A DNA stretch of 64,000 nt from Escherichia phage StefiGeyer_Bas88. Shown here piece after piece: positions 4,100-8,737 of the stretch. Position 1 is the first letter of the stretch. Each line of letters begins with the position of its first letter. The notes beneath the pieces are model-generated. The model made no database searches and was not told the origin of the DNA. It saw nothing but the letters and a program-made list of their open reading frames with translations. The translations under genes were made by a program, and so were the position numbers. The stretch lies in the sequence record PQ850628.1. One strand, 5' to 3'.

Positions 4100-5178
4100 T
4101 GGCAAATGAATTTTTAGACCCAAACGATTTTAAATCATTCCTCCAACTTGATGACTTGAAAGGATCTTTTAAAGAAGACCTAAGTCGATTAGAATCTGAA
4201 CAAGAACCAGAAGTGGACATTGACAGTGAGTTTCCAGAAGATACTGGAGATAGCTTTGACTTTGATTCCGACCTTCTCGGTAAGGGTGATGAACTCACGT
4301 TCGAAGATGAAGAAGGATGGGATGATTCAGAGGAGGAAGGAGAAGACGATGAAGGTGATTCAGACGACGACTCTGATGAAGTTGTTGAGGATGAAGAACC
4401 AAGTGATGTAGATCACGATGATTCTACTGACAGTGAATACGAAGAAGGTGATGCTTTCGACGTAGATTATGAAACTGTTATCACCCTTCCTGATGGTCGT
4501 GAGATGACTATTGAAGAGTTATCAAATGGCTATGTTACTGGCTCCGATATGACTGAACGGGAAGCTGTTCTTCAGCGTCATGTTGAAGCTTTTGAAGAGC
4601 GTGTAGGTAGTTTAGCGGATGTATTAGAATTGGCGTCCTTAGAAGCAGACCGAGTAATTGAAGATTATAACGGTTTTGATTGGGACAAGCTAGCAGTTGA
4701 AGATCCACAAGCCTATGTTGAAAACAAACGCTTTTTAGAGAAGTACACTGCTCGTCGTCAGCAGCTTGAACAAGCGCAAGTTAAGATCAAGCAAGATGCA
4801 GCAGCAAAAGAACAGCAAGCCTTCCAAGCTAAATGTACCGAATGTGTTAATGTATTGAAACGTGAAATTCCTAATTGGGATGACAATGTTTATCAGAATC
4901 TGATGCAATATGCAATTGATCTCGGTGCTACAGAAGAAGAAGTCTTGAAAGAGAATCGTCCGTCTATTTTCCTAGCTTTGCACAAAGCATACCAATTCGA
5001 TAAAGGTAAGCAACAGGTAATGGCTAAGATTAAACGTCCGGGTTCTCCACGTAAGGTTGTGAAGTCCGACTCTTCTAAGTCTCGTACTTCCAATACGCCA
5101 GACAACGCTAAGGTTGCCAAGGCATTTTCAGAGGGTCGAATTCGTCACGAAGATGCATTTAAGTATCTCGTAGATTAA
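4099..5178 (+). CDS. scaffolding protein (putative)
   Basis: Position between portal and capsid; extremely acidic D/E tract (EDEEGWDDSEEEGEDDEGDSDDDSDEVVEDEE) and helical charged C-terminal half. Confidence 0.55.
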   Translation: MANEFLDPNDFKSFLQLDDLKGSFKEDLSRLESEQEPEVDIDSEFPEDTGDSFDFDSDLLGKGDELTFEDEEGWDDSEEEGEDDEGDSDDDSDEVVEDEEPSDVDHDDSTDSEYEEGDAFDVDYETVITLPDGREMTIEELSNGYVTGSDMTEREAVLQRHVEAFEERVGSLADVLELASLEADRVIEDYNGFDWDKLAVEDPQAYVENKRFLEKYTARRQQLEQAQVKIKQDAAAKEQQAFQAKCTECVNVLKREIPNWDDNVYQNLMQYAIDLGATEEEVLKENRPSIFLALHKAYQFDKGKQQVMAKIKRPGSPRKVVKSDSSKSRTSNTPDNAKVAKAFSEGRIRHEDAFKYLVD

Positions 5179-5218
5179 TCGACAAATTATTTTTAAATAG
5201 TATAGGAGCTAACATAAC

Positions 5219-6277
5219 ATGGCAAATCCAACTTTATTTGTATCTTACGACCAGAACGGTAAAAAACTTTCTTTTGCTAACTGGATTTCTGTCCTCTCTC
5301 CGCAAGATACTCCGTTTGTGTCTATGACTGGTAAAGAGTCTATCAACCAGACTATTTTCAGCTGGCAGACCGATGCACTGGCAAGTGTTGATGCTAACAA
5401 CGCACACGTTGAAGGCTCTCGCGCTGATGACGGTGAAATGCAACCGACTGTTATCAAATCTAACGTAACTCAGATCCTGCGTAAAGTGGTTCGTGTTTCT
5501 GATACTGCTAACACCACCGCTAACTACGGTCGTGGTCGTGAACTGATGTATCAGCTGGAGAAGAAAGGTAAAGAGATTAAACGTGACCTCGAGAAAATCT
5601 TGCTGTCCGGTCAGGCTCGTACCGACGTTCTGGCTGACCAGTACCTGACTAACTCAGCAGCTGATCCTGCTCTGGCTGGTCTGAATGATACTCATGCAGC
5701 TCGCAAGACTGGTGCTTTCCAGTTCCTGTGTGCTCATGGTGGTCTGTCTGGTAGCGTTGTTGATAAGACTAAGAACGGCCCTGCTGACCCGGATACCGGT
5801 GCAGTAACTGTTAAAGTTGCACAGAACGCATCTAACCCTACCACTAACGTAGGCTTTGATGAAGCAGATATCTTTGATATGACTCTTCAGCTGTATACCG
5901 CAGGTTCTGAAGCTGATATCATCATGATTAACCCTGCTCACGCTAGCATTTTTGCTAAGCTTCAGGAAAACTCTGTTGGTTCTCGTCAGCGTATCTTTGA
6001 GAACACTAAACAATTCATCTACGAAGTTAACAGCATCACCGACCCGCTGGGTCAGAGCTATAAAATCATCGTTAACCGTTGGATGCCTACTGATGCAGTT
6101 TACTTCTTCCGTAGCTCTGATTGGACTCAGATGGTTCTTCGTGCACCGAAGCGTACTGAACTGGCTAAAGACGGTTCTTACGAGAAGTGGATGATCGAGA
6201 TGGAAGTTGGTCTGCGTCACCGCAACCCGTATGCTTCCGGTGTACTGTTCACCGCTGCGGGAAAGGCGGGGGCGTAA
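5219..6277 (+). CDS. major capsid protein
   Basis: 352-aa ORF after scaffold gene, RBS AGGAG 10 nt upstream, strongly biased codon usage (ctg/cgt/ggt) typical of a highly expressed structural gene. Confidence 0.75.
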   Translation: MANPTLFVSYDQNGKKLSFANWISVLSPQDTPFVSMTGKESINQTIFSWQTDALASVDANNAHVEGSRADDGEMQPTVIKSNVTQILRKVVRVSDTANTTANYGRGRELMYQLEKKGKEIKRDLEKILLSGQARTDVLADQYLTNSAADPALAGLNDTHAARKTGAFQFLCAHGGLSGSVVDKTKNGPADPDTGAVTVKVAQNASNPTTNVGFDEADIFDMTLQLYTAGSEADIIMINPAHASIFAKLQENSVGSRQRIFENTKQFIYEVNSITDPLGQSYKIIVNRWMPTDAVYFFRSSDWTQMVLRAPKRTELAKDGSYEKWMIEMEVGLRHRNPYASGVLFTAAGKAGA

Positions 6278-7890
6278 CAGTTGACAGCGTAACTGTTAGT
6301 CCCGCGTCAGTGGATAGTCTGCTGACCGGGGCTACCCAACAGTTTACAGCTGAAGCAGAACTAAGCGATGGCTCCACATCTACTACAGGCTTTGATTGGT
6401 CAGTAGCCGGTGGTGGGGCTATTTCTGTTTCTGGACTGTTCACTGCTCCGGGTTCGCCTCAAACCGCTGATATTACAGTGACTACTACTCTTAAAGGTGT
6501 ATCAGGTACTGCCGTTATCTCGGAAATTAAAGCTCCAATCCCTGACCCAGCTTCCATTGCTGTAACTGGAGGTGGTCTAACTGGTGATACTCTCACCATA
6601 ACTGTTCCAGATGCTACCAGCCTGACTGCTTCTGTATCTCCTGCTGGTGCACCTCAAGGTGTTACTTGGGAAATTGCAGATCCGACTAAGGCTACGGTAA
6701 CAACTGCTGGTCGTGTAACTGCTGTTGCAGCAGGTAGCACTACCCTTACAATTAAATCTTCTACTAAACCTTCTGTCACTAAAGTGATTAATGTTGTTGT
6801 CAACCCCCAGCCTCCAACTATCGCGGCTAAAGCTGCTATTACTGGAAAATCTGGTGGAGACAGTGTCGCTTTTACAGACATGTTTACTGTTCAACGCTCA
6901 GCTGCTAGTGACTATAATTTTGTAGTAACTCCATCTGCTGCTGGTACAGTGAATGCTGCTGGTCAGCTCACTTTAGCTGGTACGGCTAGCGGTAACGTAA
7001 CTGTTAAAGCTACTCACAAGACGGTAACCTCTGTTACTGCAACTGCTAGTATTAATGGTGTAACCCCTCTTCCAACTGTCGTAGCTAAAGCTGCTGTTGC
7101 TGGTAAGATAGGCGGTGATACGGTTGCGTTTGCTGACATGTTTACAGTAACCAATTCTGCGGCATCTGAATACAACTTCGTTGTTACTCCGACAGCTGCT
7201 GGTTCCGTTAATACTTCTGGGTTGTTAACTCTGGCTGATACAGCTACCGGTGATGTGAGTGTCAAAGCTACTCATAAAATTAAAACAACTGTCACTGCTA
7301 CGTTCAATTTGACAGGTGTATCGCCAAAAGCTACAATTACAGGCAAGATAGTAGGTGGTAAATCCGCAGGAGGTACAGTAACGTTTGCTGAAATGTTTAC
7401 TGTTACTAACTCCGCAGCTACTAGCTATAATTTCGTAGTAACTCCAACTGCTGCCGGTTCTGTTAATGCTACCTCTGGCTTGTTAACCTTGTCAGATACA
7501 GCGAATGACAATGTAACTGTTAAGGCTACTCATAAAACCCAGACTTCAGTAACTGCAACTTCTACCATAGAAGACGTAATACCTAAACTTACTGGTTTAG
7601 TTGTTTCAGCAGTGTCTGATGGGTCAGTAGCTGGTGATACTTTGACAATCTCAGACCCAAGCCAACCGGGAGTTTTTAACATAGCTTCTGTTCCTCAAGG
7701 TGCTCCACTAGGAACTATCGTATATGATGTAGAAGGCACAGATGCAGACAAATTGAGTATTACCATTTCTGGTGATGCTTTAACAATTACGCTCTCTGGT
7801 GCTATCACTAGTGAAGATACTAAAGTAACCCTGAGAACTGACCCAGGTTCTACAGTGTTCAAAACCTACACCGTTAAATCTGGTGCTTAA
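5219..7890 (+). CDS. major capsid protein long form (capsid fused to C-terminal Ig-like domain extension via -1 frameshift)
   Basis: ORF 6187-7890 has no independent RBS or start separated from the capsid gene and overlaps the capsid 3' end in the -1 frame; extension is Thr/Val/Ala-rich beta-type sequence with three tandem Ig-like repeats. Confidence 0.5.
6259..6265 (+). promoter_or_regulatory. putative -1 programmed ribosomal frameshift slippery heptamer GGGAAAG
   Basis: X_XXY_YYZ heptamer in capsid frame 4 codons before the capsid stop (6275-6277); the -1 frame stays open to 7890; nested hairpin immediately downstream (GCGGG 6266-6270 with CCCGC 6301-6305; ACAGTT 6277-6282 with AACTGT 6291-6296). 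Confidence 0.5.
6826..7575 (+). repeat. three tandem ~250-bp (about 83-aa) Ig-like domain repeats inside the capsid extension
   Basis: Repeated protein unit AKAA(I/V)(T/A)GK.GGD.VAF.DMFTV.NSAAS.YNFVVTP.AAG.VN..G.LTLA.TA.G.V.VKATHK seen three times. Confidence 0.6.
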
Positions 7891-7894
7891 AACT

Positions 7895-7925
7895 AAGGCT
7901 GCCTTCGGGTGGCCTTTTCTCATTT
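7895..7925 (+). terminator. intrinsic terminator-like hairpin after capsid gene
   Basis: AAGGCTGCC-TTCG-GGTGGCCTT imperfect stem with UUCG loop followed by TTTTCTCATTTT. Confidence 0.5.
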
Positions 7926-7990
7926 TAAGACCCTTATAAGGAGATATGTAATGTATTCTCTTTGTCTATACACAACTAGGAGGACAAGTT

Positions 7991-8737
7991 ATGGCAATGC
8001 CTGACGTTCAATATCCCATCAATACCTACGGATGGCTCAAGAAAGCTGTGTCCCTCTGGGCTGACAGGGATGATGATGAATTTGTTAATCAGATTCCAAA
8101 CTTTATTAACTTTGCAGAGAAGGAAATTTATCGTAACTTACGAATCCCTCCTCTGGAGAAGGAAGTATATTTAGATATCAAGGATGGTATTGCTTTTATC
8201 CCTCCTGACTTTTTAGAAGCACAATGGATTATGAGAGCTTCAAACGGGATGATGTTCAGAGTAACCTCTCCTGAAGAACTTGACTGGTTGAAGAGAAATA
8301 ACTCAGTCAACCCATCCAATTGGAATCAAGGGGAAGTTGTTTTTGCTCGTTTAGGTAGTCGGTTTATGTTCTACCCTCTAATTGATGCAGATACTCCTGT
8401 TTACCCTGATGATGGAGCACCTGAAATCCCTGCTGAGAATGCTGTAGTTTTAAGCTATTATGCAGACCCACCGGAGTTCCACTCTGATGAAGATACCAGC
8501 GCTATTCTAACTATTGCTCCTGAGCTGCTTCTATATTTTACGCTGCGTCATGCTTCTTTATTCGTTCAAGACGATAATGGAGTTCAAAAGTGGTCAGCAC
8601 TTGGTAAAGCAATCCTTGACGAGATTGTGGAGCAGAGTAAGAAAGCAGAATACTCAGGTTCCCCTCTAGTAATCCCTAATACTATCAGCCGTCTTAATAG
8701 CTCACGAGAAGTGTACGGCATTCGTAGATACAGATAA
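7991..8737 (+). CDS. hypothetical virion protein (possible head-tail adaptor)
   Basis: 248-aa ORF with RBS TAGGAGGA; position between capsid and tail fibre genes. Confidence 0.45.
   Translation: MAMPDVQYPINTYGWLKKAVSLWADRDDDEFVNQIPNFINFAEKEIYRNLRIPPLEKEVYLDIKDGIAFIPPDFLEAQWIMRASNGMMFRVTSPEELDWLKRNNSVNPSNWNQGEVVFARLGSRFMFYPLIDADTPVYPDDGAPEIPAENAVVLSYYADPPEFHSDEDTSAILTIAPELLLYFTLRHASLFVQDDNGVQKWSALGKAILDEIVEQSKKAEYSGSPLVIPNTISRLNSSREVYGIRRYR

Follow-up and report, generated by a model that had tools for sequence, protein, structure and literature searches.

A probable programmed -1 ribosomal frameshift joining the major capsid protein of Escherichia phage StefiGeyer_Bas88 to a string of Ig-like domains

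The stretch of DNA analyzed here (the window, 64,000 nt) carries the major capsid protein gene of Escherichia phage StefiGeyer_Bas88, the end of which is overlapped by a long open reading frame in the -1 frame (Table 1). The capsid protein matches Pfam family SU10_MCP (PF17236, E = 2.8e-78) and no other. The genes follow the order portal, small ORF, scaffold, capsid, which is the same in phages Bas87, SU10 and phiEco32, and the counterparts of the capsid gene in these three phages are annotated as 'major head protein'. The locus thus combines an SU10_MCP-family capsid within a portal-scaffold-capsid module with a GGGAAAG motif a few codons ahead of the capsid stop and an Ig-like extension in the -1 frame, the arrangement of the Kuravirus-like capsid long isoform. 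The intrinsic-terminator-like hairpin 3' of the extension ORF matches in position a terminator annotated in the SU10 record; between the capsid stop and the extension the terminator scan found nothing terminator-like beyond a match to a consensus of three G-C pairs. Minus-strand ORFs of 50-105 aa beneath the region were without support and were set aside, since a coding region poor in stops yields such frames as a by-product.

Table 1. Features of the capsid gene and its -1 frame extension (positions in the window)
Feature	Position	Strand	Description	Basis
Major capsid protein gene, zero frame	5219..6277	+	352 aa, 38.6 kDa	ORF list and translation
Slippery heptamer G_GGA_AAG	6259..6265	+	In the register of the capsid frame	Sequence
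-1 frame extension	6265..7890	+	541 codons and stop; proposed to be reached only by shifted ribosomes	
Heptamer-to-stop overlap	6266..6274	+	Ala-Gly-Ala in the zero frame, Gly-Gly-Gly linker in the -1 frame	
Small hairpin AACAGUU/AACUGUU	6276..6296	+	10 nt past the heptamer; inner stem of the initial annotation	Fold
Long imperfect hairpin	6289..6347	+	23 nt past the heptamer	Minimum-energy fold of 6271-6350 (z = -3.56); RNAalifold consensus
Two Big_2 (bacterial Ig-like group 2) domains	6277..6804	+	Extension residues about 5-88 and 100-180	Pfam, AF2
Three tandem 86-aa repeats	6811-7068, 7069-7326, 7327-7584	+	Predicted Big_2-like Ig fold, diverged	
C-terminal beta-strand domain	7597..7887	+	Extension residues about 445-541	AF2 secondary structure, pLDDT 48-83
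Intrinsic-terminator-like hairpin and U tract	7895..7916	+	3' of the extension ORF	Terminator scan

At the slip site the zero frame reads gcG GGA AAG GCG GGG GCG TAA. The heptamer is in the X_XXY_YYZ register of the upstream frame, as expected for -1 frameshifting by tandem slippage, with AAG four codons ahead of the stop, as the initial annotation had stated. No other in-register X_XXY_YYZ heptamer occurs in the capsid gene. The window holds 7 copies of GGGAAAG where 6.8 are expected; the motif is not enriched by itself, and its significance therefore derives from its context. No Shine-Dalgarno-like stimulator was evident before the heptamer when the sequence was inspected by eye.

The -1 ORF is open over 6187-7890, i.e. 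back into the capsid gene, and contains no stop in 568 codons; shuffled sequences average 30 stops and never have fewer than 14, and the other two frames have 46 and 56. The 541 codons counted after the shift agree with the figure of about 540 given previously. The predicted fusion has 890 aa and 91.6 kDa (352 aa and 38.6 kDa unshifted), 53 kDa of which belong to the extension, and its junction reads ...FTAAGK-GGGVTVDS..., the predicted sequence across it being FTAAGKGGGVTVD. Between the capsid stop and position 6700 the only canonical starts are GTG 6310 and GTG 6478, for which the energy calculation found no Shine-Dalgarno sequence (+1.0 and +0.6 kcal/mol, compared with a median of -9.3 for the long ORFs of the window), and an independent start of the Ig ORF was rejected on these energies. 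No in-frame ATG occurs in roughly the first 230 codons of the ORF, and both the Gly/Ser linker and the beginning of the first Big_2 domain are located 5' of GTG 6310. The ORF is thus long, overlaps the end of the zero frame and is without an initiation signal of its own.

AF2 models of the extension show six beta domains, predicted to be beta-sandwiches: two Big_2 domains, three Big_2-like repeats of 86 aa and one C-terminal domain. Pfam Big_2 (PF02368) matches the extension in three stretches (E = 3.7e-8; 33.6 bits, gathering cut-off 22.8), the best of them at residues 105-172. The three repeats are 65-67% identical to each other in amino acid sequence and appear as direct repeats at a spacing of 255-258 nt. 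They were recovered by direct-repeat search and protein comparison; Tandem Repeats Finder returned nothing for 6100-8000, as the copies are too diverged at the DNA level. Pfam returned no family for the repeats, and Big_2 did not match them (6820-7587) at E ≤ 0.01, while the model of a single repeat (pLDDT 94.7) matches Big_2, the Ig domain of T5 pb6 and the BIG2 domain of phi29 gp8 with TM scores of 0.63-0.69, and the Big_2 structure 7quz with 0.66-0.69 (E = 6e-4). The T5 and phi29 domains are fused to a tail and a capsid protein, respectively. Taken together, this indicates that the repeats are Ig-like by structure prediction and belong by sequence to a diverged or unclassified family. The C-terminal domain has no Pfam family, and is conserved at the C-terminus of the extensions of relatives according to the alignment consensus; weak matches to Pellino_FHA, Rieske_3 and GspD_N0 were below the cut-off and were dismissed. 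The three tandem Ig-like repeats of the initial annotation are therefore real, but they make up half of a six-domain string, with two Big_2 domains before them and one domain after.

Conservation was assessed in 29 Kuravirus-like loci, with the analyses of overlap and base pairing performed on 17 distinct sequences. GGGAAAG is kept at the same position in all 29 loci, and in 28 of them the -1 frame behind it is open for 180-547 codons, so that the site and the arrangement are both conserved in relatives. The stretch from heptamer to stop measures 9-15 nt across relatives. It encodes nine different zero-frame tails in the 17 distinct sequences; read in the -1 frame, it encodes Gly/Ser linkers (GGG, GGS, GSGG, GGSG) with the sole exception of VGSAT in Bas93. 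The linker has been kept while the zero frame changed, a pattern from which the overlap appears to be under selection for its -1 reading; evolution that is silent in the -1 frame indicates ongoing translation. Invariant columns across 31 homologues show that the extension domains are clearly conserved at the protein level.

The region downstream of the heptamer is unusually structured (z = -3.55). In the long hairpin 98% of the cells are paired in the 17 distinct sequences, and three pairs covary (UA/GC/AU, GC/UG and AU/GC). The small hairpin has six invariant pairs and a seventh that is broken in 11 of the 17; with its pairs either invariant or broken, covariation speaks neither for nor against it. 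The two hairpins compete for the ACUGUU strand. A nested hairpin at 6266-6305 had been proposed earlier. Its complementary segments exist and its inner stem AACAGU/ACUGUU is conserved, whereas the outer stem GCGGG/CCCGC is not: it is paired in 72-79% of cases without covariation in the 17 distinct relatives and is absent from the minimum-energy fold. It was rejected as a conserved stimulator also because it begins right after the heptamer and would lie inside the ribosome during slippage. No conserved structure is present at the classical spacing of 5-9 nt, the hairpins beginning at 10 nt and 23 nt, and no Rfam family was found in 6100-6500 even with permissive E-values.

The register of the heptamer, the open -1 frame, the missing start, the conservation of the site and the evolution of the linker support, at the level of sequence, the capsid-Ig fusion put forward in the initial annotation, and the locus is very probably the site of the programmed -1 ribosomal frameshift by which Kuravirus-like phages (the phiEco32/SU10 group) extend their major capsid protein. 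Most ribosomes would read GGA-AAG-GCG-GGG-GCG-stop and release the 352-aa capsid protein. A minority would slip back by one base on G_GGA_AAG, with the P-site tRNA-Gly re-pairing with GGG instead of GGA and the A-site tRNA-Lys with AAA instead of AAG, and would then translate the Gly-Gly-Gly linker within the 541 codons that complete an 890-aa capsid protein. As a minor subunit, the long form would be built into the prolate head together with the short one, and its Ig string would be displayed on the outer face, where it would probably bind surface carbohydrates weakly. Surface display and adhesion, like any role of the downstream RNA structures, are presumptive. By analogy with lambda and T7, the efficiency of the shift may be a few percent.

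Transcriptional slippage or RNA editing, with the frame changed in the message and not on the ribosome, would yield the same protein. Nothing specific speaks for either. Transcriptional slippage requires homopolymer runs of about seven or more A/T; no run longer than AAA occurs here, and that AAA is part of a classical tandem-slippage heptamer that has the correct register, which makes this origin of the fusion scarcely credible. Were the Ig ORF an independent gene starting at GTG 6310, its product would be a free decoration protein of 526 aa, attached to the capsid by non-covalent binding. The GenBank records of the closest relatives are annotated in this way: in those of Bas87, Bas86, EK010, SGF2 and phiEco32 the extension is a stand-alone 'Ig domain containing protein' with an arbitrary start (GTG 6310 in Bas87 and EK010), and among the records examined only YF01 and Privateer have the joined product. 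In the SU10 cryo-EM study, too, gp10 was considered to be possibly a minor capsid protein in its own right (PMC9509320). The annotated starts vary between relatives, however, as is typical of gene callers forced to choose one, and neither GTG 6310 nor GTG 6478 has a Shine-Dalgarno sequence. A start at GTG 6310 would moreover leave the conserved linker and the beginning of the first Big_2 domain untranslated, and would account neither for a heptamer that is invariant in all loci compared nor for a -1 frame that is open back into the capsid gene. A separate gene is on this evidence improbable.

The site and the ORF might also have been kept by descent, with the long form not usefully made or dispensable, a decaying accessory as in SU10. 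SU10, the one relative whose head structure is known at high resolution, has no extra density for the extension (PMC9509320; PMC9965538), but in its deposited sequence the -1 frame is closed by a 1-nt insertion at the position equivalent to 6291. In addition, extension length ranges from 180 to 547 codons among relatives. Against decay stand the 541-codon frame that is intact here, the frame that is open in 28 of 29 relatives, the invariant columns of the domains across 31 homologues and the overlap that evolves silently in the -1 frame; dispensability is judged slightly less probable still than a separate gene.

The same frameshift has already been published for phiEco32, SU10, YF01, Paul and Privateer, and the one described here is not new in kind. 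The heptamer and the fusion were described for SU10 and phiEco32 (PMC4281155), and a group-wide statement of the capsid frameshift accompanies YF01 and Paul (PMC9965538). The mass-spectrometry claim for the long product of SU10 (PMC4281155) is regarded as doubtful here. For phiEco32, a 2021 paper cites an observation of the long product (PMC7881722), and virions of Privateer gave two capsid bands in SDS-PAGE together with detection by mass spectrometry (PMC7881722). By analogy with these relatives, the long product of the present phage would be made and be present in virions. The capsid protein is orthologous to those of SU10 and phiEco32 (94-96% identity), and the locus shares with the Kuravirus-like long isoforms (phiEco32 gp11-gp12, YF01 gp8 of 892 aa, Paul 894 aa) the heptamer at the same codon, the -1 frame, the Gly-rich linker, the Ig-like extension and the terminator after it (PMC9965538, PMC4281155). 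In the GenBank record of YF01 the fusion is annotated as a 'major capsid protein' of 892 aa, which contains a homologue of the extension, but the domain mix differs and the extension is only 48% identical over the aligned part. Proteus phage Privateer (Grimontviridae), whose record carries a joined CDS, shares the capsid family and the heptamer, and there too the -1 frame adds Ig-like domains; its capsid protein is just 57% identical, its heptamer abuts the stop (GGA AAG TAA), and its extension of 171 aa appears, judged by eye, to comprise one Ig-like and one Big_2-like domain.

The slip site of T7 10A/10B differs from G_GGA_AAG, and the efficiency of that shift is about 10%. The heptamer found here is that of lambda G/GT, where it functions in E. 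coli with no strong stimulator known; the lambda genes encode tail assembly chaperones, not a capsid protein, and what they produce does not form part of the virion. In the passage of PMC9965538 that cites it, the lambda G/GT efficiency is given as about 3.5%. In T7, T3 and K1F, too, some ribosomes shift to the -1 frame shortly before the major capsid gene ends and make a minor longer subunit that is tolerated by the shell and exposes its C-terminus, which is the basis of T7 and K1F display (PMC9965538; PMC13370021). The earlier comparison with T7 is apt as to this mechanism, and is best read as a functional analogy and not as membership, the T7 capsid protein being of a different sequence family with an extension of about 50 aa as opposed to 541 aa in six domains. 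Display of Ig-like domains on the head is also achieved by other means. Phage phi29 carries a Big_2-type domain, matched by the repeat model at a TM score of about 0.6, on every gp8 subunit without a frameshift, and T4 Hoc is a separate protein made without one. The second capsid genes of phages 7-11 and GAP52 combine SU10_MCP with Big_2, and there a separate paralogue sets the stoichiometry, which in the present phage is proposed to be set by slippage; the 7-11 record annotates a terminator between its two capsid genes.

The main value of the result is in annotation. Correct annotation matters for the reading of virion proteomics and cryo-EM of Kuravirus heads, for the use of these therapeutic-candidate E. 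coli phages as display scaffolds and for predicting how they adhere to mucus or cell surfaces. The locus adds a further example of Ig-like domains joined to phage structural proteins via frameshifts, with a cassette of unusual length (six domains, 53 kDa) whose modular make-up is clearly visible. A more speculative reading, to which little credence is given, has two separate parts. The conserved, covarying hairpin at 6289-6347, in competition with that at 6276-6296, could act as an undescribed RNA switch that sets or modulates the frameshift rate, and with it the number of Ig strings per head, from an unusually long distance of 23 nt. The 86-aa repeats could represent a new sequence family, Ig-like adhesin modules displayed on the capsid in copy numbers (0-3) that are adjusted among closely related phages. 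The repeat is present in three copies here, in two in Bas87 and in one each in TH43 and EK010, and phiEco32 has none.

The capsid ORF of the window ends at 6257-6277 with GCG GGA AAG GCG GGG GCG TAA, and its AAG stands four codons ahead of the stop, as the initial annotation had it. GGGAAAG is the only in-register slippery heptamer within the capsid gene; as a word it is not enriched (7 copies versus 6.8 expected). The long open -1 frame proposed behind it was confirmed, with 0 stops in 568 codons compared with about 30 (minimum 14) in shuffles; the other two frames of the same stretch have 46 and 56. The predicted shift product, with the junction ...FTAAGK-GGGVTVDS..., has 890 aa and 91.6 kDa and the short form 38.6 kDa, close to the proposed difference of about 55 kDa. 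The coordinates of the features are summarized below.

Features of the capsid and extension region (window positions unless stated otherwise)
Feature	Position	Properties
Capsid ORF	5219-6277	352 aa; Pfam PF17236 'SU10 major capsid protein', E 2.8e-78
Open -1 frame	6187-7890	no stop
Slippery heptamer GGGAAAG	6259-6265	X_XXY_YYZ register with the capsid frame
Small hairpin (inner stem)	6276-6296	AACAGU/ACUGUU
Long imperfect hairpin	6289-6347	RNAalifold consensus; 98% paired
Candidate start GTG	6310	Shine-Dalgarno duplex +1.0 kcal/mol
Weak terminator match	6402-6423	inside extension, plus strand; 3-G-C-pair consensus
Candidate start GTG	6478	Shine-Dalgarno duplex +0.6 kcal/mol
Three tandem repeats	6811-7068, 7069-7326, 7327-7584	three middle beta domains; 65-67% identical
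Sigma-70-like promoter match, probably chance	7309-7337 (+)	TTGACA, 17 nt, TACAAT; 11/12; inside third repeat
Terminator-like site	7895-7916	after extension
Six beta domains	extension residues about 5-88, 100-180, 185-268, 271-354, 357-437, 445-541	AlphaFold2 model

In a megablast search of deposited phage genomes, 122 records matched 5100-8000, the majority from E. coli phages of the phiEco32/SU10 group (Gordonclarkvirinae: Kuravirus, Suseptimavirus) and the nearest from Bas87, TH43, EK010 and E20-1. The gene order around the capsid (portal, small ORF, scaffold, capsid, Ig ORF, adaptor, tail fibre) is identical in Bas87, SU10 and phiEco32. Viral contigs, metagenomes and deposited phages supplied 43 related loci for comparison. 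GGGAAAG is present at the same codon in 29/29 loci whose capsid identity is 93% or more, and in 28/29 of these the -1 frame behind it is open for 180-547 codons. Among 17 distinct sequences, the stretch from heptamer to stop encodes nine tails in the zero frame (AGA, VEA, VAA, AAA, VAAA, AVAA, VVAA, VEAA and LDPQQ), whereas in the -1 frame the same bases always encode a short linker, made of Gly and Ser only (GGG, GGS, GSGG, GGSG) except for VGSAT in Bas93. Substitutions in the overlap therefore change the zero-frame protein but leave the -1 product unchanged or conservatively altered; this pattern makes sense only with ribosomes reading the stretch in the -1 frame.

Separate initiation of an Ig protein is very unlikely. 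No start codon is available from which ribosomes could read the overlap, which precedes the capsid stop, in the -1 frame. From the capsid stop to position 6700 the only canonical starts in the extension frame are two GTG codons, neither preceded by a Shine-Dalgarno sequence; for comparison, duplex energies are -9.3 (median of the window's long ORFs), -6.5 (capsid start) and -10.2 (next gene). No in-frame ATG occurs until about 230 codons into the extension ORF, downstream of both Big_2 (bacterial Ig-like group 2) domains. Relatives' GenBank records do carry a separate 'Ig domain containing protein'; its start is arbitrary and differs from record to record, the pattern expected when a real start is absent. 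The sole convincing terminator-like site follows the extension, and the only other plus-strand match nearby is weak. A decaying accessory of the SU10 kind has a slim chance of applying here, being contradicted by the intact frame in the window and by conservation among relatives. Transcriptional slippage as the source of the frame change is implausible, the run at the site being only three A. The -1 frameshift making a capsid-Ig fusion, as initially proposed, is therefore supported by register, open frame, conservation, -1 frame linker and the lack of a usable start.

Downstream of the heptamer the RNA fold is more stable than in shuffles (z = -3.55 and -3.56). Of the nested hairpin initially described at 6266-6305, the inner stem has six pairs invariant in 17 distinct relatives, which is evidence neither for nor against it. 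The outer stem GCGGG/CCCGC was rejected as a conserved element, with 72-79% of cells paired, no covariation and no place in the minimum-energy fold. The ribosome footprint covers the bases directly after a slip site; an outer stem starting right behind the heptamer would lie within the ribosome when slippage occurs. The long hairpin begins 23 nt 3' of the heptamer and three of its pairs covary (UA/GC/AU, GC/UG, AU/GC), on the evidence of only about four lineages. It shares the ACUGUU strand with the small hairpin, so the two are mutually exclusive. No Rfam family matched the region. In lambda G/GT the same heptamer is active without a known strong stimulator.

The capsid frameshift had already been described in this phage group, and the finding is a correct rediscovery. 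For SU10, GGGAAAG was located in the gene for the major head protein, together with a fusion to the Ig-like CDS10, 'as in phage phiEco32' (PMC4281155). Two capsid bands and MS detection were reported for Privateer, where the frameshifted product is stated as seen in phiEco32 and SU10 (PMC7881722). 'YF01 and other group phages' are said to make the capsid protein in two forms via this heptamer, the long form having 892 aa in YF01 and 894 aa in Paul, with slippage cited as about 3.5% in lambda and about 10% in T7 (PMC9965538). The YF01 fused protein (database name 'major capsid protein', 892 aa) is 48% identical to the window's extension. The slip site, frame, missing independent start, -1 frame selection and Ig-like folds can be read from sequence and comparison; that the long product exists and sits in virions is indicated by the literature on relatives. 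Slippage would amount to a few percent, which with the 715 capsid subunits of the SU10 head (PMC9509320) would give tens of long subunits per head. By analogy with the 10B display of T7 and K1F (PMC13370021), the C-terminal Ig string would project outward, and the example of T4 Hoc and other Ig-like domains of phages suggests that it may adhere weakly to carbohydrates. The window contributes another domain combination and no new mechanism; the most useful outcomes are corrections of annotation, domain count and RNA structure. The extension is an independent CDS in PQ850594 (Bas87), PQ850622 (Bas86), NC_070981 (EK010), MN148435 (SGF2), EU330206 (phiEco32) and PQ818763 (ShigP1), with inconsistent starts 11 to about 200 nt 3' of the capsid stop and varying product names ('Ig domain containing protein', 'major head protein', 'hemagglutinin'). 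Among the records examined, the frameshift product is annotated only in Privateer (joined CDS) and YF01 (fused protein).

Pfam found Big_2 in three stretches of the extension. The AlphaFold2 model (31 homologues, mean pLDDT 83) contains six consecutive beta domains and as a whole resembles strings of Ig or cadherin-type domains (Foldseek). The initial count of three Ig-like repeats was right but incomplete. The three repeats have no Pfam match; the model of a single repeat (pLDDT 94.7) has TM 0.63-0.69 to Big_2 domains (7quz) and the phage Ig domains of T5 pb6, phi29 capsid gp8 and mycobacteriophage Douge gp8. Copy number is 3 in the window, 2 in Bas87, 1 in TH43 and EK010 and 0 in phiEco32, whose extension has 180 codons; the extension is a modular cassette among relatives. 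The 86-aa Big_2-like repeat (6811-7584; equivalents in related loci L001, L029, L031 and L003) occurs in 0-3 copies where capsids are 94-100% identical, a spread that points to rapid cassette shuffling of displayed domains. The near-consensus promoter match is probably chance, because the regional total of such matches is below shuffle expectation.

SU10 (L002, KM044272) has a 1-nt insertion at about 4187-4200 (window about 6291), 27 nt after the heptamer in column 36 of the alignment. The -1 frame consequently stops after 13 codons, and the Ig ORF is found in the zero frame of the capsid, with two stops ahead of it. The reported 55.4-kDa fusion is impossible by a single -1 shift. The MS table lists 22 peptides (50% coverage) for the '9+10' form and 23 (78%) for gp9 (PMC4281155), which would be compatible with all peptides deriving from the gp9 part. 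The insertion reflects either a mistake in sequencing or a genuine loss; the premature stop was noted in the YF01 paper (PMC9965538). In more distant loci (L009-L012, L024, L025, L027, L043; soil-metagenome phages and Aeromonas phages such as LAh_6; capsid identity 58-66%) the capsid ends with CTG AAG GUA AAG GCG/CCC UAA, and the site is G_GUA_AAG, not the canonical X_XXY_YYZ. The -1 frame is nonetheless open for 88-169 codons, with two Big_2 domains (E 9e-35) or an I-set Ig domain, which suggests slippage driven mainly by A-site A_AAG. The soil-metagenome loci have a GC-rich hairpin, GCGCCC-CUAC-GGGCG, 6 nt downstream of the site. Salmonella phage 7-11 (L034, 2501-5277) and Cronobacter GAP52 (L041, 2489-4626) have no slip site and instead a second, complete capsid paralogue with SU10_MCP (PF17236) and a C-terminal Big_2, preceded by its own strong Shine-Dalgarno in GAP52; in 7-11 a terminator is annotated between the two capsid genes. 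The paralogue is another genetic route to a minor Ig-bearing capsid subunit.
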